Source: Catajapyx aquilonaris
Taxonomy: Eukaryota
Length of the DNA: 34,977 nt
Direction of reading: 5' to 3'
NCBI GenBank assembly: GCA_000934665.2
Contig: KZ539057.1
Location: 1-34,977, forward strand
A model generated the notes under the pieces. The model was not told where the DNA came from, made no database searches, and saw only the letters and a program-made list of their open reading frames with translations. Below are positions 1 to 31,431 of this stretch, one piece after another; position 1 is the first letter of the stretch; each line of letters starts with the position of its first letter. The position numbers and the translations under genes are program-made.

Positions 1-42
1 ATCCGCCTTGAGGCCCCCATTGCGTCATCATACATGTTGTTG

Positions 43-233
43 TGGCTGTTGCCATTGGCACTGATTATTGTTGCGAATATTGTCAACTGTGATTGTTCAG
101 AAATAAACAACGATTTCAGTCTGGCAATTGAGGTGTCGACTGGCCATAGATACAAGCTGAAATCGTTGTTTATTTCTCAACAATCACAGTTGACAATATC
201 CGCAACAATAATCAGTGCCAATGGCAACAGCCA
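43..233. mobile_element. Foldback/MITE-like inverted repeat
   Basis: Arm 43-119 (tggctgttgccattggcactgattattg...gatttcag) is the near-perfect reverse complement of 157-233, with a ~37 bp spacer; no clear TSD. Confidence 0.75.
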
Positions 234-1319
234 ATGGAACAGCCACGGAATAAACAAGTGGGTCTCTTCAGATGAAACCCCAATGTTTGTAAAGGTCTCC
301 TTTGCTATGAAAACTGGATATGCAAGATTAACTTTGTTTCATTTGTGAAGGGCTACAATTGTTCAGATGCAGCAGAGTTAGTGCTTTGATACTCCCATGT
401 TTTTTTTTTTACATGTGACAGTAGAAATATGTGATAAACTCATTTAGTTGTTAAATTGAATCATGGAACTCATAACCGCGCTATGTTGCATTTTTAAGAT
501 AAGATAATCTTGACCTTATTGAATGAAGCCTATAATAACGAAAATAGAGCTCTCCTATGCCTGATATTGGTATCCATGGAAAGATTTGGCAAAACTGTCG
601 ACATACCAGGCGGTACGCCTCCTTGAGTTGGATGACTGAATAGCAAGCAACAGTTCTCCTCCTCCCCCCCCCCCCCCCCCCCCCNNNNNNNNNNNNNNNN
701 NNNNCGGAGAGGCCGGGGGGGAAAAATAGCGTGGCGTCGATTGCCACACTGTCGTGGAACGTAAAACTACACTATGTTCAACGAAAATTAAATTTATTGT
801 GCACGTAACTTGAAATATTGAACAATTATTGAACCATGGAAAGCAAAACTGAGCCAACTCCGGTGACGGGGAAAAAAATACTTGTGCACTTCTTGCACTG
901 ACCCCTCGGAAAGCATAGAAGGGACCATTGCACATGCATGGAATTTGCAGGGAAGTTGCAGCCGGCAATTCAACACCCATCCACGTTGAAATGATGCTTG
1001 TCGGACACATAGGTATGGTACAGCACACCTTTGTAGGGACCCCCTCCTCACGAAGCCCTCTTGGAGTTGTTTCGGTTTTCTCTTCCAAAAGTGTGTGGAA
1101 TACAAAAGTAAGCCAACTCCAATGGATTAAATCCATTGGAGTTAGCTTACCTTTGTATTTTGCAGGGCAGTTGCAGCGGACGATTCAACACCCATCCTGC
1201 CATCCACGTTGAAACGATGCTTGTTGGACATGTAGGTACTGCACAACACATGTTTGTAGTAACACCCTCCCCATGAAGCCCTCTAGGAGTTGTTGCTGTT
1301 TTCTCTTCCATGGCGTGTG

Positions 1320-1324
<5 letters not shown>

Positions 1325-1353
<29 letters not shown>

Positions 1354-1676
1354 TGTTGGGTTAGTGCTCACCCAGAGGGTATTTGCACGGACCTTTATTT
1401 CAATCGAAGTATACATGCTGGTGCCATATTCGAAGCGCCCGGGCCCACGGGCAGGATGACAGGAGGGGATGTGCAAGGGCAGTGCAATGTCTTTATGTGG
1501 CCATTTTTAGTGAACTCCCCCGGGTGGTTTAGTCTGTGGATATACCACCCGAGACGAAGCCAGAGGTGACCCTTGAACTCTGCACGAGATGAAGGGGGTG
1601 TCCCCGGGTTGGGATCGAACCCGGGACCTTAACATCCGTGGGCGCGCACGTTACCGCGGCGCCACTCCGTCTCCCC
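1325..1676 (-). mobile_element. tRNA-derived SINE, full length, (ATT)n tail
   Basis: Minus strand starts GGGGAGACGGAG-TGGCGCCGCGGT (A-box-like)...GGGTTCGATCCC (B box) and ends in (ATT)n at 1325-1353. Exact 12-bp TSD GCGTGTGGAATA at 1313-1324 and 1677-1688. CpG-rich, so probably young. Confidence 0.9.
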
Positions 1677-2123
1677 GCGTGTGGAATACAAAAGTAAGCT
1701 AACTCCAATTGATTAAATCCATTGGCGTTAGCTTACTTTTGTATTCCACACGCTCTTGGAAGAGAAAACCGAAAAAACTCCAAGAGTGCTTCGTGGGGAG
1801 GGGGTCACTACAAAGGTGTGCTGTGCAGTACCTGTATGTCCGACAAGCATCGTTTCAACGTGGACGCGGTTGAATAGCTGGCTGCAACTTCCCTGCAAAT
1901 TCCATGCATGTGCAATGGTCCCTTCTATGGTTTCTGAGGGGTCAGTGCAAGAAGTGCACAAGTCCTTTTTTCCCCACACTGGAGTTGGCTCGGTTTTGCT
2001 TTCCATGGTTCAATTATATTTGCAGAATAGAGTGTGGGAAAAATAGTTCCAGCGAAACTGAACCCATACCCCAGGTTTGACACATGTCGCCCAAGCAGGA
2101 GCTGTACGGTGATGAGCGGTACG

Positions 2124-2379
2124 TCACCCTGAACATAGCGCAGTTTTACGTCCCATGGAATATCAAGTGAAAGGGAAAATGAGTGGACCAAGGAATAGCA
2201 CGGAACCTATGTACACTGGGATCTCGATTCCTTAGGTCCAGTGACACATGCAGTCTTCTAAATACGTGTAGAGGTGTGTCGCATATTAGGACCTTCATTC
2301 TGTGCACTTCCTTGGTCCATTCATGTTCCTTTTCACTCAATATACCATGGAACCTAAAACCGTGCTATGTTCAGGGTGA
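2124..2379. repeat. Degenerate hairpin/MITE inside the right arm of the foldback element
   Basis: tcaccctgaacatagc...ccatggaatat...tggaccaaggaa pairs with ttccttggtcca...atataccatgg...gctatgttcagggtga. Confidence 0.65.
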
Positions 2380-4420
2380 GTTGCAATTGGGGGGGGGGGG
2401 GGNNNNNNNNNNNNNNNNNNNNNNNNNNNNNNNNNNNNNNNNNNNNNNNNNNNNNNNNNNNNNNNNNNNNNNNNNNNNNNNNNNNNNNNNNNNNNNNNNN
2501 NNNNNNNNNNNNNNNNNNNNNNNNNNNNNNNNNNNNNNNNNNNNNNNNNNNNNNNNNNNNNNNNNNNNNNNNNNNNNNNNNNNNNNNNNNNNNNNNNNNN
2601 NNNNNNNNNNNNNGGGGGGGGTGTCAAACTGTCGCTTGCCATTCAGTTGTTGTTCAACTCAAGGGAGTCATACCACCCAGCATTTGGACAGTTTCGACAC
2701 ATCTTTCCATGGATAGCAATATCACACATATGCGATCTGTATTTTCATTATTGTAGGCTTCGTTCTATAAGGTCGAGTTTGGTTTATCTTGAAAATGCAA
2801 CATAGCGTAGTTTTGAGTTCCACGATTCAATTATGTTTCTACCCTGTGTCAGTTCATAATTACACCACATTCATGGCAGTGACTATAACTTACAAGTGGA
2901 CCATAATACTGAATCACATTATTTGATGTACTCGTGTTGATTTGAATCTTTTTAATATCATCAAAAACTAATTAAGTTAACTTTTTTCTGAACTGGGTGC
3001 TTTGCATCTGCAGTGTTAAATCTTGCTCCAGTCTAGATGAATGAAGGCAAATCTACAGTGAGAATTTCCAAATAATGAGATGGTGGAAGGAAAGTGAACA
3101 ATAGCATGCAGTACTTAACTAATTTGATCCAGTATATAATGTGAATATACAGGCTGGAGGTAAGTAACAAGGCTAACGCAAGGGAAGTTCCTTGAAACTT
3201 AGAATGAAATACTAATGTGTACATTGACACAACAGCGGCCTGCATGCAGAATAAAAAATATCTATTCACACCAATATTTCTGATGTTTTGATGTTGTGTA
3301 GTGTGTAGCTTGATTTATTTTTACACTTTGTGAAGAATGTACACAAATTGCGTGTTACTTTGTCAAACTGTTTTACAAAGGAAAGTGATTCATACCACCT
3401 TGTATAGCTGGTCATGTATTTCAAAAACTGAAAGTATCTTGTACAAGGAATTATTTAGCCATTTATTTGTATATGGCCTGTTTTGAGAGACATTTTTATT
3501 AATAGCTCCAATAATGTGTAGTAGTGTATGAAATTCAACATCCCCTATGAAGTACTGGCACAAATCAAGCAATATAGATTAGTGACCAACACTGGCCAGC
3601 CTATGCTGTGTGATCCCATCAGGGGAACGTGGCAGAAGTCAACAGAAGAATATAAAAGTGCCTATGTCCTATCCAGATCATAGTTTCAATTATGGCTGGT
3701 ATGTTTAAACTTCTAAACATCTGAACTGACTTGGGCCTGCATGTTGGTCCTTGGCTAAGCCTGGGTGCCATGCAGAATCATGACTTGCTTCCACTTTCTT
3801 GGGAGCATAGGGTTTTGAGTTGACAGGCAGGAGCTGGAACAGTAGCCTACTATGCAAATGCCCATGTGTCTGACAGTTCAGTCAAGACTATAAAATTGTC
3901 CAGTGTTGAACTTAACATTTTTGAGGGCAACATCCACTCATTGCAATGTAAATATCTGTCCTGTCATGTATCCCATTTTGGCTTTCTGATTTACTATATA
4001 GCACTGCAGTGCTTGCATCTGTCTACTGCGTAATACAGTACAAGCATTACTTACAGCTGTTCCAACTACTCATAGTAAGAAACTATATGCCTGGGCCTGC
4101 GTGGAAAATAACATGCATATAGGTAGGTAATACACTTGACTTATACCACTTGAAGCTTCATACCAGCCACACAAGCACTCGCACATATTCCCTTCAAAAT
4201 TTGACTCTTGACCACATATTTCTCTTCGATGTATTTTCCTGCTGAATAATATGGTATGCAGTACAAAGGCTTACAGAACACGGTGATGGGCAGAGTGGGA
4301 CTAAGTGAGATCACCTGCAGGATGGAAGAGCAAATACAGTAGGAATTGATATTTGAGAGGCACCAACAACATGAGAAGAGCCTCCATTAGCGAAACATAG
4401 TCTGTGTGTTTTTGTTTGTA

Positions 4421-4684
4421 CCTTCCCCAAATCCCTGGGTTTACATGCACCCCCCCCCCCCCTCCCTTTCGGGAGTCATTGAGGCATAACTCATACAAAA
4501 CATGGGTCAATGATACCCAATAAAACCATTGGCACATGCATTTTCTTTCTTACATGTTAATGCACGTTGTTACATGTTACATGTCGTACATGGAGGTTGT
4601 CACTGACCCATATGTTTCGTACAAGTTACACCACAATGACTCATGAACTGGGGGGTGCACGTAAACCCAGGGATTTGGGGAAGG
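4421..4684. mobile_element. MITE with TA TSD (Tc1/mariner-superfamily-like)
   Basis: Perfect 24-bp TIR CCTTCCCCAAATCCCTGGGTTTAC / GTAAACCCAGGGATTTGGGGAAGG, continuing degenerately inward; TA at 4419-4420 and 4685-4686. Confidence 0.85.
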
Positions 4685-5040
4685 TATTTTATTATAAACC
4701 CATATAGAGGGGTCATTCCATGTCAATCCTGTAAATGGTGGTGGCTCGACCCCTTCTGATGTAACTGAAAAAAATCAGGTAGATAGGGATCTGTACCTTA
4801 TTGCGAAATCCTAAATTTGAGGCCGCTGGAGTCAAATCTCACGGACATATAACAATGTAAAGTTCAACAATGACATCTATATCAAGTATTTTTAACTGTT
4901 CACACTGTTCTCCTAACACCAACATGTTATATATCAAATGGAAGGTAATGCAGAGAGGAATAAACATGGTTACACAATATTCGACGTAACTCGTAAAACG
5001 ACATTTTAAAAAAAACACGAAGATATGCGGAAATCACTAT

Positions 5041-5259
5041 GGGCCGAATTCAGAGAGGTTGCTTAATGTAAACGCGCCCGATTAAATCCTTTAGTCATCC
5101 TCGATTAGCAAATTTAACCAACCTGCTAATACAAAGACGGCGATTAGCGCTAAACGCCCCCTAATCGCACTTGCTAGCACTTTTAAATTTGATAATCGAG
5201 GATGACTAAAGGATTTAATCGGGCGCGTTTACGTTAAGCAACCTCTCTGAATTCGGCCC
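5041..5259. mobile_element. Young MITE, PIF/Harbinger (Tourist)-like
   Basis: ~70-bp near-perfect TIRs starting GGGCCGAATTCAGAGAGGTTGCTTAA; 3-bp TSD TAT at 5038-5040 and 5260-5262; CpGs retained. Confidence 0.85.
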
Positions 5260-5405
5260 TATATATTCCCGATAGCCGTAAATCATAGTATTATGATTTT
5301 CACCAATAGATATTTAGGATGTAGGGCAATCACCTTTGCCTAAATGCACATGCAAAACCTCATTGTGATAGGTCATGGGGTTGGAAATAAAAATTCCCTA
5401 AAATA

Positions 5406-5950
5406 CAGTTGAATCCGGATATAACAGCCTTGGTTATAACAGACTCAAAAGGCCAGTCCTGGCAAACTTCCATAAGGGCCTGTGTATTTTTACTCCTGAT
5501 ATAACATACCAATACTCATTTTCATCTCACCTTGGCTCTAACATACCATTTCTTGACCCCTCTGTGGGAACACATTCTGCTTTTGATTACTTCACTTCTT
5601 TTCCCATGTGAGGAAAGCAATGCATGCTGGAGAGGGGGTGATTTTCGTATCTGTCACTGATCTAACACTTGCAGCAAAGGTCAAAATAATTTTGTGGTAT
5701 ATTTGGCAAGAAGGAGACGGCAGGAAAAATAAATAATTTTCTTTGGTCCTGCATAATTTACGGATGAGCTAATTTTGCATTTTGTGGATAGTTTCATTAA
5801 TCAGTATGCAGTTGTGTGCATTATACGCATATAAAAAGCAGAAAATTTTGTATATTCGTTGCAAAATTGGTGGTTTAGTTATAACAGACCTCAGTTATAA
5901 CGTACTTTATTCCACGGCCCCTTGAAGTCTGTTATATTCGGATTCAACTG
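5406..5950. mobile_element. pogo/Tigger-like non-autonomous element
   Basis: TA|CAGTTGAATCCGGATATAACAG ... CTGTTATATTCGGATTCAACTG; repeated subterminal (T)ATAAC motifs. Confidence 0.75.
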
Positions 5951-6217
5951 TTTATATGAGTAATAAAAATTGTGACAATATTTGAATGACTGTAAAGTTC
6001 TATTTGCAAGTTGCATTAGGCAACATACCACCTGCTTTATTGTGGAAAAGGGACCTTGCAGCAGATGGCAATAACCCTGCCATCTCCTGCTTGGATTTGA
6101 ACCTTGGCAATCCATTTGGTGCTCTCTGCATGTGACTTCATAATTCTTCCAAGTGAAACATGTGAATAGACCTTAAACAGGATTGAATATCAGAAAGAGC
6201 TTATCTATCGTACCTTG

Positions 6218-6354
6218 TCACATGTAATGTGCAAAGGTACCTCTTTTTTGTCTGGGGGGGGGGGGGGATCTAACACTAGGGGCCAGCAGTGTTGGACCCC
6301 CCCCCCCCCTCCCCAAGATGAAAAAAAAGAGATACCTTTGCACATTACATGTGA
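6218..6354. mobile_element. Short hairpin MITE with internal poly-G/poly-C arms
   Basis: tcacatgtaatgtgcaaaggta...G-run pairs with C-run...tacctttgcacattacatgtga. Confidence 0.7.
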
Positions 6355-8280
6355 TACCTGTACTATGTGTTTCATAATTTAGCTCACATCCATATCTGTG
6401 GAAATGTTGTGGCAGTTGCTGCAGCAAGTCCGTACACCTGTGTCTGAGTGTACGTACTTGCCGAATATGAGTAAGTGGAAGTTAAGGCACAATCACCATG
6501 ATCAACTCCCTTCTCTCCCTCACCTCTCTCCCTTAGGGCACCAAGAAATCATACCGGCTTACACATTTATGCAGATATGAGTGTGAGCTAAATTCTGACT
6601 CACATGGTATAATATTTGCTACCAAAGTGAAATTCATGGCACCCGTCCACACACAATGAAGAAGATATGCGTCAGTTGTGCTGCATGAAGCGACTTTCAA
6701 CACAATCCTTTTCCCACACATCTTTGCCTGATGGCAAGTTAATGTCTCCACCAAATAGCAGGCAGACTGAATACTACAGTCCTAAATTCTAGAGGAGTAT
6801 CATATAATTATATTATAACAACTGCAAAGGAAAATACATTATTTCAAACATGCACTTAGAGGGTATGCTTAATAACAGGATGGTTGGTCATAATCTGGCC
6901 AACCTACTTTGAAGAATTAAAACATATGTCAGGCTAACACACAGGATGTAGGGGGTTTCATAATCAATCAATTTAGGATGAATTTTTATGAGCCAGGGGG
7001 ATGAGAGGGTGGTCATCTGGTCTGCTGGCTTGTTACCAAGATATTGGGTTCTTAATGTGTGTTGTGGCATATCCTGTAAGATTTTCATACTACCAGACAA
7101 GGCAAGCATCTGAAAAATCTGGTGTCTCTGCTACTTGCAAGGACACATGTGCAAATTTGGGATCATGATCCACATTCTGTGTATTAATTAGCTGATATGG
7201 TATGCATTTGAGAGTCCATTCATCTGTCCCACATACCACCATTTACTTGGGCTAATAAGGATATGTCAAAATGCCTGGCCCTATTATTACATAAATAAAT
7301 ACGTATAATGGAAAATAATGATACTGCTAATGATAATGCTTATGGTGCTGTCCAAGTAACAACAGTACATGTGTTCATAGCATTTTCATCCCCTGAGCAC
7401 AAGATACTTTAATACCATCACACTGTGGAGGATCATCAACAGCCAGAAACTGAACAAGTTTCACCATCAGAAAGTGCAAGCTTTGGGCCCCACAAACTAC
7501 CTTCAAAGTGTTGAATTTTCTCAGTGTTCTGGTTACATGTGATATTTTTCGGGAATTTAATGTGGTTCAGTTGAGTGTTATTGCATTGGTGACCATAATT
7601 GACCATTAGATTTCATTTGAGAATGTTGCCATCTTATCATTTACACTGCCCATGACATAATCTGCAGAGAACACTGTTTTAGACATGATCAACATGTGGT
7701 CAGGTGCAAACCTTCCAGGATATGCTTGATACATGATAAAAGGCCAGTTATTATCTCAGTACTGACACTATGGAAAACAAAGTCACCTCTACATTAAGTA
7801 AACCTCTGGTAAGCAGCAGTTCACCCTAGAAGTTTTTCTGAATCATTATGAAAGACCCTCTCTTTTATTATGACCCTTATAAAACTGAAGCAGAAAAAAA
7901 TACCTCCTAATTTTTGTCTGCCTGAACATGAATATCTATGGAACCATGGATCAATAATATATTTTAATTGAATCTTTTTATATAAAAAACTTGTATGGTG
8001 TACTCATGACATTAACCTGCAGGTTTTGGATTTTCATGGATCACAGTAAGTAGGCCCTAGTTTAGTCCAGTGTTTTTAGAAGCTCTTGGCCATCTGATAA
8101 CCCATTGCTCACGTTAGTGCTGTAGAAATAAACCATAATTGAGGAAGTTCGTAATACCCAACCTTTCTTCATATAAATTTTGCAATCTGCCTGTAATCTA
8201 ACTACATATTGCACTAGAAAACGCTGGACTAATACACAATACCTTACAGGCAGATATAGCCATCTGGAGACATATAATTA

Positions 8281-8622
8281 CATTGTATTCCTGATTATTC
8301 GTGTGGGGATTATCCTTGTTGCAGATTATCCATGCATCGCGAAACAAAGTTAGAAATAAAAGCTAGAAATATTGTAAATGTAGCTAGTGAACAAAGAAAT
8401 GTGCACACTAGCCAGAAGTCAGACTAAAAATCTATTGTAAGTTTTATTATTTTCATTAAATGGTAATTATTGCATCATGCACTACGTACAGTACGGTAGT
8501 TCATTAAAAACATTGAAATAGCTCATTTTTACGGTATGTAGGACCATTTTTGGATTATCCGTGTTTTACAGTTATCTGGGCCACCTGTGCATTAATTAGC
8601 ATGGATAATCAAGAGTGCAGTG
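8281..8622. mobile_element. Old degraded pogo-like MITE
   Basis: Left cattgtattcctgattattc vs right ggataatcaagagtgcagtg (degenerate inverted pair); internal gattatcc repeats. Confidence 0.45.
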
Positions 8623-11563
8623 AATCACTTATTGCAATGGAGCATACTTGACTATCTAGTGAGATGTATTACATGTACGATGAAATTGTCGGTTCAGTTC
8701 ACTCATGCAGTGTAGGTGATGCTGACATTATCCACAAGGCTCACATTCTGTAGATATTCTCATAACATCTTTTCTATAGTGATTTTTTTACATCGGGACG
8801 CACAGGGGAAGTGCTTATAAACATCGTATGTGAACAAAATTATTTAGAAACACAAAATTACACCTGCTTCGGTTTGTTACAGGCCCTATTGATTGGTAGA
8901 TATCAGGGTCTGTTTCTGCAAAAAATGAAGGCATGAGTTTTTCTGTGATGTACTGTTCCCATCTTTCCTTCCCAAGAAACAAGCAAGCATGCTTTTTTGT
9001 ATGCATTCTACAAGTTTCCATAATTCCAGTTTGATTCTGGTATGTGAAAAATTAAGCCGAAGGTTTGATGATGTTATTCACCTTTTAAGTGCCAATATTA
9101 AATGTGTTTTTTAAGTACACAGAAACTTGTACATATGCATCATGCCTATTTTTAAAAACATTTACAGTAGATGCTTTTGTCATGTCCAGTACCTTAGTTA
9201 CATTTGGCTTTGCCAGATTCCAAAGGCACCCTCACACTATAGTAGTAGGCTAATTAACCTCAACTTAATTTTCATGCCTACATAAAAGTAGAACATGATA
9301 ATTATGTAGTTGTCGCAGAAATAAAGATTTCATGCATGTAGGCAGGTGGCATCACCAACAATATTACTGATAATCAAAAAGTAACATTTGTTTAATGACT
9401 TTTACTGATATTTTTGTTCTTTTGAATTCTGCCCTAAATTAAACTGAAAAAGGCTATTAAAATATACACCTGTCATCAGCAATGCACACAAATCAGATGT
9501 TTTTTTTTTAAATATTTGTCTGAGGCTTTATATTGGGTGAGGCATGATTAAAGATTTTTCTGAAAGAGGGCACTTAAGTACGTATAATATAATTTCAAGA
9601 CTTTTGTAACTAACTGGCAGCTAAGTAGGTATGAATGTAAGTCATCTTGCAACTACATTGTATTACATTTGTAAATTTCATATCAGAAACATTATTAACA
9701 GGAAATTCTTTGATTTCTGCAACATTTCAAATTTGATTAGACAAATTTAGGCTTTGTATGTAATTGACATACCCTGTCATAGAGTAATAGCATATAAGTG
9801 AGTAGATTAATGGGTGAATCGGCTTCAAGTGCTAGCCACGAGCATGTGTGCATGCACATGCTGTAGGTAATAGTGTGGCCAGAACAGGAAGACGCTTCTC
9901 ATACATTCTCGTCTCAAGTTGGTTGCAAAAACGTTGGTGCTCAGCAGATATAATATATACCAGGTGCTGCAAGATCACTTTACTATACCAATTATAATAT
10001 TGAAATTACCTTTGTGATAGTTACAGTATATGCCCATCTATATTAATTTATGCTAAGTTGTTAAAGAAGCATTTGAAAGATACTGGATCTTATGAGTGTG
10101 TGGAATTGATCTTGTACCACATGGTATTTTGTGTGGTATAGCCAGGCTATAAATGTGCAGTAGGTATCCTAACAGCACCTAAAACCCAGTGACATATTGG
10201 CATAGGCATATTAATATATGTGTTGTGGCTTCTTATAATTTCAGTCGCAAGCGAAGTTTTGTAGCTCACAGTTGTGTGTGTTGAAGAATGAATGATTCAG
10301 AACAATCCAATTATTGGTGATTAGTTCTAAGTGTTGTCCTGCAATGCGTCTCTCTACAATGTAACTTACAGTAATATAATGCCTATCCCCAAATATTCAC
10401 TCCCAGATAGTCTTTCTTGTGAATGGACTGAGAGACTCCAATTATTGAACAGCACAGCCACTGAACATGCAAAACCTAGGAAAGGAACATGTTAACTGTA
10501 ATGTAGGTGTGTTTCTCTGCCAAGACCAAGCCCTATGGAGCATGAGTGCCTAGGCACTGAAGTGTATTTTGAAAGTTTACAAGGTTTTTAAAAAGTATCT
10601 GAGTCATTTTCGGCTGATAATATAGTTTAACCGTATTGCTAATTGAGAGGTTCGTGAAGTGTTGGTGCAGTATCCTGTGCTCCAGTATAATAGTGAATTA
10701 AAGGATAATCTCTTATAGGCTTACCATCGCCATAACCACATTCTTTGAAACAAAAATGTATCATAGTATATTAATGTAAGTTCTTTTGGATACATGTGTA
10801 TCTGGAAACAGCAGTTTGCATAGTGTGGTAATTCTGTTGTCATGACATTTTAATGCATTGTGCAATATTAAGTATCAAACTTTCAAATCAAAGTATAATG
10901 TACTACAATAGCACTTAAAATTTTTATGTGCAAAATGTTTTTGGTGCTTATCTTTAAAAATAATTACTGACTCAGTAGACTACTTGGTCCCAAGTCTCAT
11001 TGATCAAATGATACTCTGATATTAGGAGGCATGAGAGGCTCCAGTGAGATCTAAGGTTGCAGATGCTGCCAACAAAGGCATGACCATGAGTCCTTTATCA
11101 GAAGCATCAGGATTCGAAAGAGCCAGGTCTTCACTCTTCAGCTATCTCTATCATATCTTCCTGAACATTAGCTGGCACTATTGACCATTCCTCCAAGTCA
11201 GGCTGATCCTCAGCAATCCTCAGTGACCATGGTCATGGAGAGTCAGTCTGGATTATTGACAAGTGGGAAGGACCTTTTCCTTCCTAATAATTAACCTTCA
11301 CCAGTGCCAGTGTTGCATGGATGCCTAATGACTAGAGTGGGAACTGGGGTTCTTCTTCAAATCTTTTTTGAGGCATACAGTATAATTATGTATCCATCTT
11401 ATGCACCTTACACAGTATTGCATTACATAACATTTAAATATTTCAATTGGTAATATCATGTAATGATCATACTATAATACTATGTACCTGCAATCAGTTC
11501 TGTCATCTCACTAATTGATTGCATTTTATATACTGTAATTAAATTTCACAGGATGACATATTA

Positions 11564-12492
11564 TGAGGGTATGCTGATAATTTTTTCTTCCATGCACATC
11601 GAATTTATAATACATGCCACAGGACAATGAGGTGACATCAAATGAAAGCCTGAAATGTCCTCTTCAAAACCATATATTTACTTTTCTACATAACTACCAC
11701 CAACATCAGTACACTTGCACCAATGATGTACGGGTTTTTCCTCCGGTCGGTGTGCAACTCTGGGCTGTGGGAGAGGCACCAAGTGCGAACAGCAGCCTCA
11801 ACTTCTGCATTGGAGCTGGACTGGCCCCTTCAGATGTGTCTTCATTTTTGTAGAAAGAAAGACTTCACAGGGCACAGCATCTGGGCTGTGTATAGCAGAT
11901 GAGGAAGTGCAGGGAAATTGAGTCTCTGGAGAAGGTGTCGTGCACGTTGAGTTCCTGACTGGTCACGAGCCTGTGAATTCTGAGGTGCATGTAGACACCT
12001 TGTGCAATGTGCAGGTTTTAGGCACACTTGAACAGTATGTGCCCAGGAAAGGATGTCATTGTTCACCATGATACTGCTCAACCACACACAGCACGCAATC
12101 ACACTGCAAATGTGCAGATGCCTTCCAAAGACTCAAGACCCCGTACTTTCTAATCTGGCATAACAGCCCATATCTTGTGCCCTGCAACTTCTTTCTTTTT
12201 CAAAAAATGAAGACACACCTGAAGGGCAATCGGTACAGCTCCAATACAGAAGTTGAGGCTGCTGTTCGCGCTTGGTGCCACTCCCCCAGCCCAGAGTTGT
12301 ACGTCGACCGGGGGAAAAGACTAGTACGTCGTTGGTGCATGTGTACTGCTGTTGGTGGTAGTTATGTAGATAAGTAAATGTATGGTTTTGAAGAGGACAT
12401 TTCAGGCTTTCATTTGATGTCACCCTCATTGTCCTGTGACATGTATTAAAAATTCTATGTGCATGGAGGCAAAAATTATCAGCATGCCCTTG
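11564..12492 (+). mobile_element. Non-autonomous mariner derivative with ~340-bp inverted arms, both made of the element's 3' end
   Basis: TA-flanked; 11564-~11905 is the reverse complement of ~12150-12492. The + strand retains transposase relics GVVHVEFL..VNSE, VHHDTAQPHTAR and PCNFFLFQKMKTHLKGNRYSSNTEVEAAVRAW...GGSYVDK* (mariner C-terminus). Confidence 0.88.
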
Positions 12493-13783
12493 TATACTAA
12501 TGAATTACCAGTGCATTTTAATATAGTCTACTGTGATGTACAGGATATTGTTTTATTGTGCAAGATTAAGGCCTGTGAGCCTAGGATGTTAGTTACAAAG
12601 AAAACTGGCCTACTTGTGTAACACTGTTAAGGAAGTGCTTAAATGCAGCAGTCACACGTGATGAGGGAGACAGAAAACTTCTGCAACATTGGTCAAGGAT
12701 TTTATTGTACATGAGGGCAGAGTAACATTTATTTCTTGAGTCTACCATTACACATCATGACTTTTTAAAGAACCCTTCAGAGTTATAGTGAGCAGATACA
12801 GAATAAGTGAACCTCATATTTTGTGCAAAGGAAAAAGTTCTCTGGTTAGGTGAATTGATGAGAGGAATTGAGAGTGGATGACAGTTATATCAGAAAGTAA
12901 GAGAGTGTAAATAGCTGAAAAGAGGGCTTCTACAACATAGGCTGATTGTACAGCTGCCAGGATGCATTTTCTGGATTGAGAAGTGACAGTATAGTTCAGG
13001 ACAAGACATATGAGAATTGTTTGATCTTATTCCCACTATCTACACTGAACCAAGTGAGATATTTTAGTATATTAAGGCTTTCCACACAAGGCAGAGTTTC
13101 CATACCATGCATAAAATGATTTGCATGGTGTAAATGGTATGAACAAGGCAGATTACCTGCTATTGAAGGTTTTATTGCCACTAGAAGACTAGATATCTCA
13201 CTTTGATCATAGGAGGAGTATGGAATTAAGATTACTGCCACATATTTTGACCTGAATTATGACAATGAAAATATTTTATCAGTTACTAACAACAATGGAG
13301 TAACCATTTTCCTGCTGTGACTTTCCAATCCAGAAGAGTGTGGTTTCCTGGCAAGCAGTGCAACTGCCCCTTTTTCATAGGAACAGCAGTATGGGGGCAA
13401 AATATCACTTCAGAAGGAGGGCGAATTGGTGAAGGGAGGATGAGATGGCATGACATGAGTTCTTTTCAAGCAGCAGACAACCACTCTCTCCATGAGTAAT
13501 CTGAGAACATGCCAATCACTTGCAAATATTTAGATGGTTTACCAGTCCAGAAAGTGGTCTGTAAAAACTAATTTATGAGACGATATCCATGTAATTATTT
13601 TCTAGTACATAAAAGTGTATGGAGATGCATTGCAGGCTCCTGCTATACATGGAGCTGACACCATGGAACCAAGATTGTCACATGTGCGTCAGGCAGGCGC
13701 TGGGGTGAATGTGTGTGTGCTCGTGCCTGCGTATGATTAGCTGCAAGATTGATTTTGTTTTCTCCTTATCTCTCCTCCCACAG

Positions 13784-13972
13784 AAAAACTCCCGCGCTGC
13801 CGAGAATTTTGATCCTATCTTTACGAATGCGAAGACGGAACTCACACCTCCAGATAAGAACAGCCAGCTGATCCTAAACAATTTGACAGGCGACGAGTTC
13901 AAGGATTTCAACTGGGTGAATCCCCACTTCAGTCCAGTGGGACCAGAGGAACTCATCGTCACCCGTTCCTAA
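13784..13972 (+). CDS. Conventional protein kinase C, proximal alternative terminal exon (AGC C-tail, alpha/betaII-like)
   Basis: Polypyrimidine tract + CAG at 13781-13783, phase 0. Encodes KNSRAAENFDPIFTNAKTELTPPDKNSQLILNNLTGDEFKDFNWVNPHFSPVGPEELIVTRS*, with NFD, F-x3-F-T, turn motif LTPPD and an F-x-x-F hydrophobic motif. Confidence 0.88.
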   Translation, partial: KNSRAAENFDPIFTNAKTELTPPDKNSQLILNNLTGDEFKDFNWVNPHFSPVGPEELIVTRS

Positions 13973-16900
13973 GATGGAGTCAGCCAACGGCTGCTTCTCA
14001 TTTTATTTGAGGAAGGGGAAGCATTTTAAATCTCACCTTTTGTATTGTTTCTGGTCTATTTTATGGAAGCTATGTCTCCTTCTGTTTCTCTTTGACCATT
14101 GCAATCAATGGATTTCATTTTTTCTTTCCCTTGGCATTGATCAGCCATGTGATTTTGACAAGCTTGTCAACAAGCTAGTGACCAACGGCGATTCACATGT
14201 GTCACGTGACAATGATAGTCCCATCCAACAGTACCAGATTGCAAATGAGGTTATACTCGCATCTGTTGCTGCTGGAAGAAATTAGATTGAGCCTTGTCAC
14301 AGGACCACTGCCTTGAGAAATGCTCGCGCCTTTCTAGATATTGCTGATGGTGACCTCTTTCTAAGGTTGACCTGTCACCTGTCATTATTCTCAAGGAATG
14401 AAAAGATTCCTCTAACATGGACAAATCAGCACAATTCGTTCTTCCACACCTTGGTTCCTATCCACTCCCTGTTGGTTGACATTCTGTTGACATACCTCAC
14501 ACAAAATGTGGATGATGGTTTTAATATCACATCCCAAATGGTGTATAAGAGTGAAGGCCTAACCATGAGTTACCAGAAGTTTGCTGACTGACTAAAGGTA
14601 CCGTAACTTGCAATGTGGTATGTTACGTCCATAGTTCAACCTTTATGGCAACCAAGGTGGACTCATATCGGTTTGACACTTTCCTTGCTCTGATTGTTAT
14701 AATGCCCTGTTCCTATAAAAGGTAGAATTATATGACGAAAATATTCATCCTAAGGATGGGAGAAGGAAGCAAGCAAGACAAACAGAATTCAAGAAACTTG
14801 ATGTTAGAGTAACATGGCATTAGCATGTCAAGCACATTCTTTAAATCCTTGTACTCTAATATTCCACTAGTGATTTTTCAGGTTCACTCTGAAGTGAGGA
14901 AAGCGAGGAAAATGCATCCTACCCACATCTTCCTTGATTCACTTGTGTATTTTCTTACTAGTTCTTATGCAACTTGGAAAATTTGACACACAGTCTTGTT
15001 CCAAGATCAGAGTGTAGTCTTATCAGAAAGTCTATGCCATGTGGTTCATAGTAAACTTCCCATGTTGTGTGATGCAACAAATTTTAATAGCCAGTCAAGT
15101 CCAAAGGCCTATTATCTTCATAAGATCTTAATTTCATAATAAGATGATTTTAGATGAAAATTTTTAATTGGAAATGACACCTTAGAGCAGACCTAAATTC
15201 ATTATGTTCATTATGAAAATGTCCACATGATAGGGTTTGGGGTGTTGTTCTTGGACTACCTGGTATACTCTTATAAGAACTCGACATAGTTTAATGTATA
15301 AGAGATATACAATACTCAGACTTATTTGGCAATGGCAGAGACTTGTGATGTTTGATGCCAAATGTTACATATTATGTCTCAGACATGTCATATTCTAACA
15401 TATCCTATACCTTTAGGACGTTGTTCAATCAATATTTAAAATATAATGTACAGAATATACCTAACACCTGGTGGTCCGTGCTAAAATTCCCAACCATATC
15501 AATAGACACTTTCAAACAGTGTGTGAACTGCTAATCTTGTCCAATGCAAAAGGGTCACTTGAAATACACTATAATTTAGATGTAGGTGTAATTAATATTA
15601 AATCAATGACATCTTTACTTAGCATACGATGTTAAATTAAATGCCAGTTTTTTAATGCTTCATTTTGCTCTGTGGAATTTAGCTTGAATCACCTGGTACA
15701 CAAGGTATAAGGTACCCAAGTGAACAACTAGCTGCAAGACATCTGCAAAATTGTGCTCCGTTACTCTTCCCAAGATACACAGACATTGTAATGAAGCCAA
15801 ACAATGTCATTTATCATGGCATGACTGTGTACATTTAGTAGAAAAAGCACGTTGACATGGGGCTTTGTGTTGTTGTTCACCTGGGAGCATCTCACCCTGT
15901 GCATACTGAGGTGAACTTTTTTGACCGAGCAAGATGATGGGAATGCAAGTGTAATGTTGTATAAAGCTGCTTGGTGTCACAAACTTGCATAATTTGGCAC
16001 GAAAGAAGCTTGATGGAAAGATATTACATACCTACAAGATATTACCAAAAAAATATATTGCTTCTTCTCTCCATAAATAGTATGGGCATGAATCTTGGGA
16101 AACTGTGGTTCTGCTATTTTTAATTTTAATTTTCTATCAGATAGTGCTTGGAATAAGCTTTATATAACTGTGGACATAATTATTGTGTGTGAATATGACT
16201 ACATATTAATTCATATTTCTCAGGCAGCCCTGCGTAACTTGATTGAGTCATATTACTTGTGTAGCGAAATGATGCTCAAAAAACATATCGTCGATTCGTC
16301 GTCCTTCTTTCAAAACCTCGAATCATATGTAAAATCAATTGCTGCAATTTTCATTAACAGGATGTGAAATTTATATAGTTTTTATAACAGTAAAATATAA
16401 TTAGACTAAGCACATCAGTGAACATGTTGTGACAACATGAATTCTGGTGCAGTATCTAGAGCAGTTACAGAATGAACCTTGAGGTTTCTACAAAATGTGA
16501 TGTATTTCTGCATCATTTGCAGGAATGCAGCAGGAGCAAAATGCTAGTCCTGCCTTATCACTGCACACTCAAAAAGTTTGACCAACAAATTTACTCATGA
16601 GGTTTTGAAAGTATCATGGCGATACACGGTGTCGAGTCTTTGTTATTTTGTCCTAATAAGGAATTGCATTTCCTATGAGACTACTAAAACTGGTAGGCAG
16701 AACAGTGGGAAAGAAATGATGGCATACTGTACATATTGGATGCGTGTCATAATCATATGACTTATACACAAACTACTGTATACACATAATTTTATTTCAT
16801 AATATATATGAAGACAGAGGAACCAATATAGGACTGCACAAACAAAGTGCAGATCTGTTGGAACCCAGCAGATGGGAAGCAAAAATACTAGAGCATGGCT

Positions 16901-19861
16901 GGTAAGACTAGGTCTTGGACATGTGCAGTCCAGTTGATAGTTGTGCAATGCTTGTGAACATAATTAGTTATGTTCTTGTCTGCTGCTTATACTGGCATAG
17001 GTGGTAGGCCAGCTAGCTCAGCTAATATTTATACCTCAATTCTCTTCAGTGCATATCCTAACTGAAAGGATGACTTCTTTTGCACTCTTAAATTTTTTTA
17101 TGCTATTGCACCTGAGATAGCTTTTCATTCCAATTGCAGCAATGTTAGGACTCACTAAAGAATAATGCATTTCCACCAGTGGCATCTTTTGCAAATAGGC
17201 AAATAGCGCCATTGTCACAGACTCAGAAGGCTGAAATAGCCTAGTTGTTATTTTTTTCATATCCTCAGAGAAGTCGCCACTGGCATATGCAGGGGTTTTA
17301 ACGAACAATGTAGGCTACTTGATTTTATTTCATCTGAAGCATTCATGTGACATTATTGACGTGTTTTAGTTGTTCAATCTTGTCTACAGCAGACAATAAT
17401 GAAGTAAGAGTCAATTTGATTTTATGTCTTGTTGCTGTTTTTTACGCAAGAAGCTTTGACAATATACTGTATTATTCCATTCAGCAAGTACACTGTAAGC
17501 ATGAACACTTGGCCTGATCCACCTGACATTTATTTGGGATTTATTTCCATGAAACACATTGAAAGCATTAGAATTTGGTTGTTGTATGTATTAGGACAAC
17601 ATTTTGTCCAGGATAAAGTGAACTATTTTTATATACTGTGATTGTTCAAGTTTCTACTTTTAATTATGACCTGTACAAATTTCCTTCACAAAACTTGCTC
17701 AGTTTTCTTTATAACTAGATTATATTACCTTGTTTAATTTTGTTAGCAGAAATACGTCTTTTGAAATGCGATGAATTTCATGAATCTGGAAGTGGTAACT
17801 CATAAGAATAAATTCAAATCGGAGAGTAGATACAACACATGCACTATGGAGGGGAACAGTAATACATCACTTCATGAGGGGAACTTTTGTAATGCCTCAG
17901 TTCCTTTCTCATACATTCATATTTTATGTTTACTTTATACCAATAATTGCTGCTCACTTATGCCTTTCTTTTTGATGACTACCTGTGTGGTAAGGCATGA
18001 ACTGGACGAGTAAAACTGTTACTTTGATAAATGAGTTGTAAAATGTAATTGCTGGCTAAATAGTGTCATCAGTGGTATTTTCCAAGTTACTCGTTATCTG
18101 GAAGCGTTGTTATGTCATCTAACTTATAATATCTGGAGGACTTGTGTTTGTCAATATCTGTTAAATTTCTTATAAATACAGCACACCACCTTCTTAATGT
18201 AGGTCCGTATGTGGGTGTGTGGATATGCCCCCGTGCATGCATTTTCCAAACATATTTGGCATAAACAGGATGGTGAGAAGTGTACCAAGAAATAACTGAT
18301 GTTGAAGACACAAGCTTTGTGATGGACAGAAATGAATGATGAAAGCCTTTATTGCATGTCAAGTTTTTAAAACATTTTGCCTTTTATGTAAACATGTATT
18401 TACATCTGTGTTACTATGTAGTTGTAGACATCTTATCTTCTAAAGTTTTAAATGTAAAAGTTCTGTATAATGTGAACTTTGTGAAAGAAATCAAGTGATT
18501 AGAGGCTGTGAAGAAGCTGAGAAGTAAGACAAAAATATGAAGGAAATGAGAGGTGCAAAGAAATTGGGATCCAAAATATCTTGGTGGACAGTAACAATTT
18601 TTGGAACAACTACCAGTACTTTCTTGCTCGTACATGTGTCCACACCACATAATTTATGCCACTGGTCCCTCCACAAGAGAATTGTACGATATTAAGGCTC
18701 AGTTGCATGAACACATTTAGGGGAAATCTCCATTATACTGTATACTATGGATATTACCCATAATAATCAGATATTTACCCTTCACCTGTGTTCATACATC
18801 TGAGTGTCAGATGATTGATTGCATTCTAACCATGACTTACATTGAGCAAATTTGTCTAACCCTTGTTTGGATGGACCAATGGTATTATGCTCGTTTATTT
18901 AGGCTCTCTGGCATTGTACACTGCCACCCTAACCTATTCACCTCATTCTGTCTTCCTATTGGATGTGATAGCATTTTCATACCTGCCCTACTCCCTCAAA
19001 TTACCACATTCATGTTTAACCATTATGTTATTTCTTCTCAGACTTGCAATCAAGTCGAAGGTTATATTAGTTTGCAATGAAACAATTATCATATTATGCT
19101 ATTAATTATGCTGTGCTATTCATGTACCATTGTTATCCAATTTAATGGTGTGCAGTAGTTTCTGAGCAATACATTTCCCTCACCTCCCCTTATCGGTTAA
19201 TGTACGTATCAATTGTGGAGTGCACAACATACAATACATTGTAAAAAGAAAGTGTTTGTTTAATTTGCATCACCATTTTTCAGTTTAATGTAATTCAATT
19301 CCTGCAGGGAACCATGCATACATGCAGCTTTCTCCTCAACGCATACTAACATGTGCCATTCTAACCAATTTCATATTAAATCTACCCAGTTATTGCGGAA
19401 TTTTTTCTGAGATCCAGTACTGGAGCTGGTAGAGTAATGTACTTGAGTAGGTCCTCTTGGTAATCTAGGAAACTACCAGCATTATGTCTTCTACCCCACA
19501 AGAACAACTGCAGAAATGATTGGTATTCTTGTGCTGCATGAGGTATCTCTTGCATTTTTGCTATACTTTTTTTCCCACTCCATAACTTGACAGTTAGGCA
19601 AGCATGGTTTATGGTAAGAGAGCAACTTTTAGCATGTATTGTTCACATTGGAATTTGGCACAACTTAGTCATGGGACCTTGCAGTATGTTTATTCATGAA
19701 GAGTATACTGTGGAAGTTGACTGAATGGTCATACTCTAATTGTGAAGAATCTCAGTTAGAGAGTGAGGTAGACAAGGACAAGCAAATTGCTTGCCAATAC
19801 CTATTAGAAGAGCCTGCATACCCCATTACTAAGATGACTTTGGTGCTTTATTTTCTTGCAG

Positions 19862-20014
19862 AAGCACAGAAAGGACGTGAGCAACTTCGACAGACAATTT
19901 ACATCCGAGAAGACAGATTTGACTCCTACAGACAAACTGTTTATGATGAACTTGGACCAGACAGAATTCATGGGCTTCTCTTTCCTCAATCCGGAGTATG
20001 TCCAGCACGTTTAA
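19862..20014 (+). CDS. Pkc53E: Conventional protein kinase C, distal alternative terminal exon (betaI/Pkc53E-like)
   Basis: Branch-like TACTAAG (19827-19833), acceptor ttttcttgcag, phase 0. Encodes KHRKDVSNFDRQFTSEKTDLTPTDKLFMMNLDQTEFMGFSFLNPEYVQHV*, very close to the recalled arthropod cPKC C-terminus. Absent from the ORF track (different frame, no ATG). Confidence 0.95.
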   Translation, partial: KHRKDVSNFDRQFTSEKTDLTPTDKLFMMNLDQTEFMGFSFLNPEYVQHV

Positions 20015-21128
20015 AGATGGTAGCTGCTGTAAGTCTTGCTGTCATCTCACTGCTAACTCGGTTCTTGTCCTTCAAACTCATGTCTTGGTTTCATACGTTC
20101 GGACAGTACAAACCACTTGCACCTTGACCTGTCTTTTCTTCCTGAGCAAGTTGGTCAGGTCACTTGACTGTCTTCAGCATGAATGTTTCCAGTGCGAGCG
20201 TGACTATCTTTTTCGCACTCACCTGTTTGCTCCTTATCACTCCCGACTGGACATACATCTCAAGAATAACTGTGGCCACCATTACTTATCCCATCTTTTC
20301 ATTGTCTCTTTAACACCTCCAATAAGAATCATTGCGCATATATCATCACCCACTTAAGGTTTCATCATCGGGATTGATTAGGACTGACGAATCTTATTTA
20401 TGGCATGCTGACTGCTTAGCAGTGTCATAGACCAATATTACTGTATGTACGAGTATTTCTTTTCTTGTAGTCATTTCATTCTGAATGGTTGTGAATCTTG
20501 AAAACACGTCATTATCCAGTGTAAGAAACCACGTGTTAATTTCAGTTTTTCCCCTCACTTCAACTTTTGCCACAAAAAGGTAATAACAGTTCTCATGCAT
20601 AGGTGTTCAGATGCCAGGCAAAAGAATGATTGTAGCTTTGTGACAAGTTTTTTGTTGCCAAAATATTTTTCTTTTGGCCTAGACTAGTTCTATTTCAAGG
20701 CATTTAATTGTTAAGTTTTTGATGCATTCCATGCCATGTTGGAATTGTTAAATGCATGCTAAATGTTGAAGCTGTCATGCTTGATCAATTTCGATAGTAT
20801 TCTGTGGTAGGAGGACCACTTATTATAGGCTACATGTTGCAAGTATTCCCTATTCTGCCACTCCCTTAGGTAGCAAAATAATATTTTCTTCGTAGAAATA
20901 GAGTGACGCACTGTTTATCTAACTATTGACTAACTTTTTACAATAACACTTGAGCCTTACTCCCTGTTTGTATCATATGTGACGTGTACTCACTGCTCAT
21001 CATTACTGAAAAGTAACTTATCGATACCTAAAACTGTAAAATAACATTTTTTGGTTAAATGGTTTCAAATTTCAACCTTAAGTGAAGTCAAGTAACACTT
21101 TCCTTGTAAATTGTCTATATACTGGTAA

Positions 21129-21167
21129 AATAAATGTGTGGTAACCTTCCTAAATGGCCAAAATAAA
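21129..21167 (+). promoter_or_regulatory. Candidate polyadenylation signals for the distal PKC exon
   Basis: AATAAA at 21129-21134 and 21162-21167, followed by T-rich sequence, ~1.1 kb after the stop. Confidence 0.55.
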
Positions 21168-22011
21168 TGTATTGCATTTTATTTCCTCTTTCAGTGATTT
21201 TCTCTTGTCAGCAGAATGATTCAGTGGTCCAAAACAAGGTAATACTCACTTGTCAGTCAAAAATGGATTTGGCAATCTTGTTACTTTGAGACACCATTAA
21301 TTACAATCACAAATGTTGGGACCATCATATGAGGACAACCGATATCCTCTTGAACAGTCTAGTAAAGCTGTGAAGATAAATTGAGAGCTGCATGCACTTG
21401 TTAAATCTGATGAGAATGTGTTGCATTGGAGAGGACAAAGGAGCTGTTTTCAAATGTGAGGTGACCAAGAAATATTGCAAAAGAATTTTAGTGTGTGTTG
21501 AATAGCATGTACTAGTACTTTCACAATAAATTGTCCCAGCACTTTATGTTACAAAAAGAGAAATTATAAGAGAAATTGAAACAAAAAATTCACAGACATG
21601 AACTTGAAACCTGTTTCCTGCATTTTCACATGTAGGCCTACTTGTTAAAATCAGCAATTTTTTCACAAGTCAATTTCATCCAATCAAGTGCTTCAAATAT
21701 ACTTTCTAGTGGTGTAGTGGTCAAAACACAGCCATCCACCTCTTAGGTCCTAGTTCTATCCTTGAGTCAGAAACTACGGTAGGTAATATAGCTTTCTAAT
21801 GTTGAAAGATTTTATATTGGTTCTCTCCACGTGTGCATTGGTTTACGGATGCAGGTTACGGCGTTACGCTCTTCTTATGCTGATTCATGGAGGGTGACAG
21901 TGCGAAATTCCAAGAATAAAGAGTGCCCATATCAGATTTGGAAAAGCCCATTTTCAGTGCCCCAGATTGACGGTGGAGGTGACCGGCATGAGCCAAGGCA
22001 AAAAATTAAAT

Positions 22012-23604: not shown

Positions 23605-29372
<5,768 letters not shown>

Positions 29373-31192: not shown

Positions 31193-31362
31193 AAGGGGGT
31201 ACTCACTTCGGTACTCCGGTGTACACCTGCAGTGGTACTCTTTGGTACTCTTCGGTACTCCTTAGGTACTCCCTGGTGCTCCAAGACAATAAACAAATAT
31301 GCCTCTAACTTCGGGAGCTTTTCCCTCTCGTGTCGTGCTTCCAATCCCAAGGGGCTAAAAAA

Positions 31363-31431
31363 TGGTGCCGGGGATCGAACCCGGGACCTTTCACATGCAA
31401 AGCGAACGCTCTACCACTGAGATACACCCCC
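31363..31431 (-). tRNA. tRNA-Ala(TGC), probably a pseudogene
   Basis: GGGGGTG TA TCTC AGTGGTA GAGC G TTCGC TT TGC AT GTGAA AGGTC CCGGG TTCGATC CCCGG CACCA, then T6. Anticodon at 31399-31397; the acceptor 3' strand is 3 nt short and the D-stem has a T10/C25 mismatch. Confidence 0.85.

Follow-up and report, generated by a model that had tools for sequence, protein, structure and literature searches.

Does an arthropod conventional protein kinase C (PKC) gene hold two alternative exons for its C-terminal tail, and is such a pair of one origin with the betaII/betaI pair of vertebrates? The question is raised by a stretch of 34,977 nucleotides from Catajapyx aquilonaris (GenBank assembly GCA_000934665.2, contig KZ539057.1, positions 1 to 34,977, forward strand), referred to below, at its full length, as the window, in which two homologous exons coding for the C-terminal V5 tail of the kinase, here named proximal and distal, lie in tandem. 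In conventional PKCs, the V5 tail determines how the enzyme matures, how stable it is, and where in the cell it acts; in mammals, the betaI/betaII switch is a classic example of regulated splicing. We consider it probable that the window contains the 3' end of an arthropod gene for a conventional, Ca2+/DAG-dependent PKC, orthologous to Pkc53E and PRKCB, with two alternative V5-tail exons whose origin is most likely shared with the vertebrate betaII/betaI pair.

Two tail exons in the Catajapyx window

The first-pass annotation of this DNA, made from the letters alone, had described two complete C-tail exons, each with its own acceptor and stop, and no kinase-domain exon between them. This description holds. 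Both exons (Table 1) end in TAA and exceed the gathering score of 20.9 bits used as cut-off for the Pfam family Pkinase_C (PF00433), with 32.2 bits (E 1.8e-7) for the proximal and 48.5 bits (E 1.5e-12) for the distal exon; their peptides share 21 of 49 residues. When four full-length arthropod conventional PKCs were compared with the whole window by tblastn, E < 1e-4 was reached only at the two tail exons (remaining matches E > 2), and no kinase-domain exon was found between the tails or in positions 1-13783. Since the upstream 13.7 kb hold no such exon, the shared donor lies beyond the window, at a distance of over 13.7 kb in the upstream direction. No N gap lies within 13784-20014.

The distal exon, preceded directly by ...ctttattttcttgcAG and translated as KHRKDVSNFDRQFTSEKTDLTPTDKLFMMNLDQTEFMGFSFLNPEYVQHV before its stop, carries all three motifs of the tail, namely, SNFD, LTPTD, and FMGFSF. 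Its earlier assignment to the betaI/Pkc53E type is borne out by comparison with solved structures, where it scores 60.2 bits with human PKC-betaI (29 of 47 residues identical in a hand count of the printed alignment), against 39.9 with alpha and 36.4 with betaII. Most of the best 120 of 336 matches, largely arthropod PKCs, are 92-98% identical to it; among the matches listed, source names include 'protein kinase C, brain isozyme' and 'protein C kinase 53E', and an annelid PKC tail is 76% identical. Splicing into this exon is seen in the sole public run found for this stretch (X1), whose kind is off record; no run listed for 13300-20300 is recorded as RNA. One X1 contig (record 8) matches 19862-21159 with zero differences and carries 255 extra letters 5' of 19862, ending in GAAGTGCAACCTCCATTCAAACCAAAGATT, which encodes EVQPPFKPKI; it reads ...AAA CCA AAG ATT right up to 19862, and a phase 0 junction is thus observed. 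With this peptide the last exon common to both tails of a conventional PKC comes to its end, and the join falls exactly on the acceptor that was predicted. The simplest source of the contig is RNA; that a DNA run has caught a retrocopy is an unlikely alternative.

The proximal exon opens at 13784 with AAAAACTCC (the same start is also written AAAAACTCCCGC), directly after ...ttctccttatctctcctcccacAG, and its acceptor, read straight from the sequence, is strong. Its translation, KNSRAAENFDPIFTNAKTELTPPDKNSQLILNNLTGDEFKDFNWVNPHFSPVGPEELIVTRS followed by the stop, contains ENFD, LTPPD, and the hydrophobic motif FKDFNW, in which Asn occupies the phospho-site of the pattern F-x-x-F-[S/T]-[F/Y]. The exon is taken to be in phase 0 because its frame is open and relatives read ...QPPFKPKI|KNPR.... 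It keeps all nine of the nine residues that are invariant in an alignment of 18 proximal-type tails, and retains a C-terminal extension, PEELIV, comparable to EE[LIV].IP of relatives. Compared with four related loci, the proportion of non-synonymous differences (pN) is 0.24-0.32, versus 0.84-1.0 (saturated) for synonymous ones (pS). The hydrophobic-motif site governs the stability of conventional PKCs, and the proximal isoform, as predicted from its codons, would lack the means of being phosphorylated there if the Asn is real. Its codon, AAC at 13904-13906, is one transition away from AGC and is left uncovered by the X1 contigs, so that the Asn may be an assembly error.

A pattern scan of the spacer between the exons located the earliest ATTAAA after the proximal stop at 15597 and the earliest AATAAA at 17807. 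The best candidate donors (14149, 14618, and 14894) are weak or far, and no strong donor close 3' of the stop was detected in the spacer. Much of the spacer is spanned by X1 contigs, and another X1 contig (record 1, 13540-13797) crosses the proximal acceptor unspliced. X1 depth is about 0 over 12000-13584, present over 13585-21192, and 0 beyond, a pattern to be expected of RNA that begins with the proximal exon; it is a hint only, since these are contigs. One contig in the spacer (16853-19189, 2,337 nt, minus orientation) has a depth of 53.8, versus 2-17 for its neighbours; its open reading frames (ORFs) have no Pfam match and it has no Rfam match, and a repeat, a piece of a transposon, or else a distinct RNA of high abundance may account for it. 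Pfam likewise returned nothing on the spacer ORFs or on neighbouring minus-strand ORFs.

Table 1. Coordinates of the tail exons, their flanks, and other features of the window.
Feature	Positions	Strand	Remarks
Proximal acceptor	13755..13783	+	29-base pyrimidine-rich tract ending in AG; ttctccttatctctcctcccacag
Proximal V5 tail exon, alpha/betaII-like	13784..13972	+	62 codons and TAA at 13970-13972
Spacer	13973..19861	+	5,889 bases; intron of the distal isoform, possibly 3' untranslated region (3'UTR) or intron for the proximal isoform
Distal acceptor	19840..19861	+	polypyrimidine tract and AG; ttggtgctttattttcttgcag; junction used in X1 contig
Distal V5 tail exon, betaI/Pkc53E type	19862..20014	+	50 codons and TAA at 20012-20014
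3'UTR after distal exon	20015..21159	+	extends to where the spliced X1 contig stops
AATAAA poly(A) signal	21129..21134	+	adjoins the X1 contig end; second copy at 21162 (pattern scan)
Three hydrophobic ORFs	23936..25203	-	78, 74, and 168 aa; look like membrane-protein exons; no Pfam match at E 0.01
Three consecutive ORFs matching successive parts of Fibrinogen_C	26845..27750	+	65.9, 54.6, and 46.6 bits
tRNA-Ala (TGC)	31360..31431	-	Rfam 49.1 bits, ARAGORN agrees; sole Rfam match

Proximal-type tails and their splicing in other animals

A HMMER search with the proximal exon over 1.84 billion representatives retrieved 44 matches with E up to 1e-3, which range in length from 42 to 281 residues and, over nearly the whole exon, in identity from 40 to 66%. 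Many of these relatives are unspliced ORFs with a Gln codon (CAG) right before KNPR, marking the same acceptor, and several are joined to ...QPPFKPKI. Among 'longer' sequences, a single-sequence word-index search with the proximal tail gave no match and only a profile succeeded. Built from the 18-tail alignment (A1), this profile retrieved 73 longer proteins, including 20 named invertebrate proteins of 19 species. They come from springtails (Folsomia candida isoforms X2/X3, Orchesella), ticks (Ornithodoros turicata isoform X1, Rhipicephalus, Dermacentor, Ixodes pacificus), mites and spiders, the scorpion Centruroides vittatus (isoform X2), the horseshoe crabs Limulus and Tachypleus tridentatus (isoform X5), the ostracod Darwinula, the onychophoran Euperipatoides, the priapulid Priapulus, and the snail Biomphalaria (61 bits). 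The named proteins are full-length conventional PKCs, and in all of them the proximal-type tail follows ...QPPFKP..; such tails were also found on full-length open frames of 2.3-3.3 kb contigs and on two translated transcript contigs (L023, L025). No pterygote insect is among the named matches of the profile search; Popillia reaches only 38 bits, with a tail of another kind.

The first-pass annotation had expected gene models to capture only one of the two exons, which proved too pessimistic, the proximal tail being present in several RefSeq isoforms. Automatic models named 'PKC, brain isozyme' carry it in Ornithodoros (X1), Centruroides (X2), Tachypleus (X5), and Folsomia (X2/X3); these models are predicted only, and neither the species of the window nor the Asn variant is among them. 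The earlier use of LTPPD as a diagnostic of the alpha/betaII type likewise has to be abandoned, as the second Pro varies in the proximal family (TPPD, TPAD, TPSD, and others). At the phospho-site of the hydrophobic motif, 74 distinct proximal-type tails have Ser (38), Thr (28), Asp (5), Glu (2), or Asn (1). The proximal-type family is conserved, and it is the faster-evolving of the two tail types.

Beyond the hydrophobic motif, the arthropod tails nearest to the proximal exon of the window continue with EE[LIV].IP or DPP[LF]I. The C-termini of seven proximal-type proteins (P0189, P0193, P0204, P0205, P0142, P0149, and P0152) read ...[ST]-[SI]-L (e.g., ...VSSL, ...VSIL, or ...ISSL), and these ends of one subgroup resemble a class I PDZ-binding end. 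Two records with distal tails stand apart: P0003, whose label names a plant, Castilleja foliolosa, has the sequence of an arthropod-type PKC with the distal tail segment repeated four times, and in P0004 a stretch of the distal exon is repeated; the two look like products of contamination or faulty assembly.

The order of the two exons was followed in 38 related loci, found by scanning metagenome contigs with the A1 profile. The proximal type precedes the distal one on the same strand in 18 of the 38 and the reverse order occurs in none, in line with the betaII-before-betaI order that the first-pass annotation had seen mirrored here and that human PRKCB shows. The proximal type stands alone in 14 loci. 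In 12 of them the downstream sequence is no longer than 1,043 bases; in the other two, L020 and L007, it amounts to 2,593 and 10,000. Just one tail is present in each of the remaining six loci, of which four resemble vertebrate alpha or gamma, including L019, with 7.8 kb downstream and no second tail exon in it. All three parts, from the common exon through the proximal to the distal one, are contiguous in four genomic loci (L005, L018, and the L031/L034 group), and a gene model of Nymphon runs from ...KPKI through part of a proximal-type exon to the distal exon. The tails of L018 are closest to annelid and snail rows. For the L025/L031 group, an atlas look-up yielded no taxon, a rotifer cluster at rank 12 being only a lead. 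L007 carries, at 7952-10159, a mite-like conventional PKC that is seemingly intronless over residues 27-624; its sole tail is of the proximal type, and the 10 kb that follow contain no distal-type exon.

Splicing of the proximal exon to the body of a conventional PKC is seen in relatives, in transcript contigs (L002, L006, L012, L023, and L025) and in the named models, and two modes of its use can be distinguished. In four transcript contigs (L006, L009, L012, and L013), an unbroken stretch coding for PKC leads into the proximal exon, which brings its own stop and is 187 nt long in L012; about 20 nt further on, the distal exon follows in another frame. The proximal exon is here a stop-bearing cassette. 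The second mode is a read-through terminal exon, observed in the organism of L004 and L002: L004 starts on the first base of the proximal exon, runs through a spacer of about 1 kb including the distal acceptor, continues into the distal exon and UTR, and ends in poly(A), and it overlaps at 100% over 973 nt with L002, which holds the full coding sequence and the proximal exon and has AATAAA close to its end. The first-pass annotation had called the two exons mutually exclusive terminal exons; with these modes in relatives, that wording may be wrong.

Tail type is not always a difference between isoforms. In the spider Nephila pilipes (P0064 versus P0181) and the mite Halotydeus destructor (P0106 versus P0203), distal and proximal tails lie on paralogous genes on different contigs, 82% and 68% identical, respectively, which suggests that in spiders and this mite a gene duplication was followed by a division of the two tails among the copies. 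The distal form of Ixodes and the proximal form of Ornithodoros are 92.5% identical, as one gene would give.

Age of the pair and competing explanations

In human PRKCB, the betaII coding exon (chr16:24214658-24214813) lies upstream of the betaI exon (24219961-24220110), and inclusion of the mammalian betaII exon, stop included, turns the last (betaI) exon into UTR. The Catajapyx locus resembles PRKCB in having two homologous last coding exons at the same intron position and in phase 0, with the II-type exon upstream; in the human gene the exon peptides, 50 residues for betaI and 52 for betaII, start at the point equivalent to that after ...KPKI. The spacing is about 5.1 kb in the human gene versus 5.9 kb here, and the cassette structure is matched by the four invertebrate transcripts with the out-of-frame distal exon. 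The loci differ in that the proximal exon of the window has moved much further away from betaII, having gained an insert of three residues and an extension of 13 and bearing Asn at the phospho-site of the hydrophobic motif. Cassette use in this species is putative, and a good donor close behind the stop is lacking.

A tree of 75 tails and 44 columns was computed from rows picked among 240 proteins and the 38 loci, a mis-extracted Popillia row having been removed; it comprises 38 proximal-type, 23 distal-type, and 12 vertebrate alpha/betaII/gamma tails, together with two outgroup-like unnamed rows. The proximal-type tails form one clade (support 94/92), the vertebrate tails another (94/83), and the two are united (94/84), a grouping also found with 51 rows (91/89). 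The exon pairs borne on the same DNA, from the window and 10 loci, group together in 0 of 11 cases, and the lineage-specific duplication that the first-pass annotation had named as the contrary outcome is not what the tree displays. Because none of these pairs groups and the types split instead, the duplication predates all sampled invertebrate lineages. All members of the 18-tail alignment carry E-N-F-D, as do the vertebrate alpha/betaII/gamma rows without exception; in distal and betaI tails, S-N-F-D stands in its place. That the proximal-type tail and the vertebrate II-type tail go back to one origin is favoured, not established; shared E-N-F-D, exon order, and cassette mode all point the same way.

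On the reading that we prefer, the last common exon (...EVQPPFKPKI, outside the window) would be joined to either of the two homologous V5-tail exons. Joining to 19862 gives the canonical betaI-like tail, the step shown in this species; joining of ...AAAGATT to 13784, shown in relatives, would give here a divergent tail with its own stop. The predicted product of the latter would carry ENFD, the three-residue insert, the C-terminal extension, and an Asn that replaces the phosphorylated Ser of the hydrophobic motif, and its mRNA would either read on through the spacer or use the exon as a stop-bearing cassette before the distal exon. Since the turn motif, the hydrophobic motif, and the extreme C-terminus all belong to V5, an effect of the switch on priming phosphorylation, stability, and docking is to be expected, with the catalytic core left untouched. 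The exon pair is older than the divergence of arthropods, onychophorans, priapulids, and one spiralian lineage or more, and most likely has the same origin as the vertebrate betaII/betaI pair; vertebrate alpha and gamma would then have kept the II-type exon only, and pterygote insects apparently the I-type only. A bolder proposal, which we advance tentatively and to which we give somewhat less than even weight, is that the whole device, an upstream stop-bearing II-type exon that is included or skipped, was inherited from the protostome-deuterostome ancestor, followed by reciprocal losses and, in spiders and some mites, by parcelling of the tails to paralogues. The switch may then serve to make a conventional PKC that is stable without hydrophobic-motif phosphorylation, as the drift of the II-type site over Ser/Thr, Asp/Glu, and here Asn would suggest.

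Several observations weigh against a functional pair of shared origin, and they bear on three other explanations of the locus. The assignment of the proximal exon to the alpha/betaII type, made in the first-pass annotation, is favoured by the tree and left qualified by modest scores: as a single query it gives 31.9 bits with alpha, 24.9 with betaII, and 22.5 with betaI; the A1 family profile gives 57.2, 55.5, and 52.4 bits, a margin of just 3-5 bits for alpha/betaII over betaI. Compared with its own distal exon, the proximal one scores 40.0 bits in BLASTP, a scoring method that differs from that of the 31.9 and 24.9 bits with alpha and betaII. Vertebrate alpha-like loci score slightly higher with the distal than with the proximal tail of the window. 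The common origin with betaII rests on 44 columns, in a tree without a vertebrate betaI row and without a named outgroup, where 94/84 is below the 'starred' level of the tool and the bootstrap had not fully settled; the approximately unbiased (AU) test fails to reject proximal and distal tails as one clade (p 0.106 and p 0.138). The proximal-type exon could thus have arisen by a tail-exon duplication within protostomes, or within ecdysozoans and spiralians, independently of the vertebrate or deuterostome betaII/betaI pair, and the likeness to alpha/betaII (ENFD, sometimes TPPD) and the same order would be coincidence or parallel constraint. Such convergence is compatible with the AU result, with the close profile scores, and with distal-like stretches in some proximal tails, as in Euperipatoides (...TPADKLIIMNM...), and many fly/nematode/human coincidences of this kind are treated as convergent in a Genome Biology and Evolution (GBE) article of 2022 (PMC9741552). 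Nevertheless, we regard it as unlikely, if still the most serious competitor, given that the best trees of both sizes unite proximal-type tails with vertebrate alpha/betaII/gamma, that the E-N-F-D/S-N-F-D divide runs along the same line, that order and stop-bearing cassette mode are the same, and that equivalent exon pairs outside chordates are reported in a Nucleic Acids Research (NAR) article of 2021 (PMC8373072). The ancestral bilaterian switch proposed at first pass is accordingly retained in part: an old origin is favoured, all 11 pairs splitting by type, and the AU test leaves the link to betaII short of proof.

A second group of contrary observations concerns the use of the proximal exon in Catajapyx itself. 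No RNA product with a splice into 13784 is known from this animal; of the two junctions that the first-pass annotation proposed to look for, X1 shows the one at 19862, and at 13784 its contigs have neither a joint nor a loose end, with 13798-13945 uncovered. As the kind of the X1 run is off record, the spliced distal contig could in principle be a retrocopy, and the tails parcelled to paralogues in spiders and one mite show that a tail pair need not be an isoform pair. The lone Asn among the 74 distinct proximal-type tails is that of the window, which also has KNSR where relatives carry KNPR; both may reflect relaxed constraint. The proximal exon might accordingly be a relic, unused or used at trace level, with the distal tail alone being made and the intact frame being inherited conservation, and the fact that no named pterygote insect is among the proximal-type matches indicates that such an exon can be lost. 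We judge this improbable, more so than convergence, in view of the open 62-codon frame with its strong acceptor, the nine invariant residues and the PEELIV extension that are kept, and a pN far under the saturated pS. Finally, one frame might be fortuitous, or the exons might belong to different genes through tandem fragments or an assembly join, as the upstream donor lies beyond the window and the window has N gaps. That explanation has effectively been refuted already and retains hardly any probability: both exons pass the curated Pfam cut-off, the three-part layout is contiguous in four loci and the Nymphon model, and no gap separates 13784 from 20014.

Known systems, neighbouring features, and significance

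The principle of an old PKC tail pair has been published. Martinez Gomez et al. (NAR 2021, PMC8373072) give 'Bilateria' as last common ancestor for the PRKCB C-terminal event, with the crown-of-thorns starfish as example, and describe exon-specific PRKCB residues as 'conserved in vertebrates and invertebrates'; table S2 of the GBE 2022 article (PMC9741552) again gives 'Bilateria', and its table S5 puts Drosophila Pkc53E under 'Different region, convergent'. In the parts of the two articles available to us, the claim is the same as ours, a C-terminal exon pair older than the vertebrate-invertebrate split, but the named example is a deuterostome, and no arthropod, priapulid, onychophoran, or mollusc case was noticed there. 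Our literature searches found no published description of the arthropod tail pair or of invertebrate V5 splicing, and the accessible part of a crustacean PKA/PKC paper holds no discussion of V5 tail splicing. Pkc53E of Drosophila melanogaster is the orthologous gene, and the 'protein C kinase 53E' of other insects bears the distal-type tail; according to a preprint (bioRxiv 2021.09.29.462380), Drosophila Pkc53E isoforms differ at the N-terminus and in the C1 domain, not in the C-tail. No pkc-2 sequence of Caenorhabditis elegans was identified among our matches. Islas-Trejo et al. are said to have described, in 1997, two alternative C-termini for this gene.

As for the remainder of the window, the Fibrinogen_C matches (Table 1) point to a gene for a fibrinogen-related protein downstream of the PKC gene. 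Repeats resembling short interspersed nuclear elements are suggested by near-identical ORF translations that occur several times in the first 2 kb (~800-2050). Three N runs (assembly gaps) and a long trinucleotide microsatellite are also present, the places listed with the repeats being ~690, ~2400-2620, ~23450, and ~26690-26830.

With the principle already known and the proximal tail partly annotated, the gain lies in breadth and mechanism, and no new concept is added. What is new is the breadth among protostomes, the cassette mode in invertebrates, the apparent absence from pterygotes, and the variable residue at the hydrophobic motif. Gene models that contain the Pkc53E-type tail alone miss an isoform with a different, sometimes phosphomimetic or non-phosphorylatable, hydrophobic motif. 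If the two-exon device works in arthropods, priapulids, onychophorans, and a spiralian, it would be among the oldest regulated splice choices known, would be open to study in invertebrate models, and would also explain the 'betaII-like' look of PKC-alpha and gamma.

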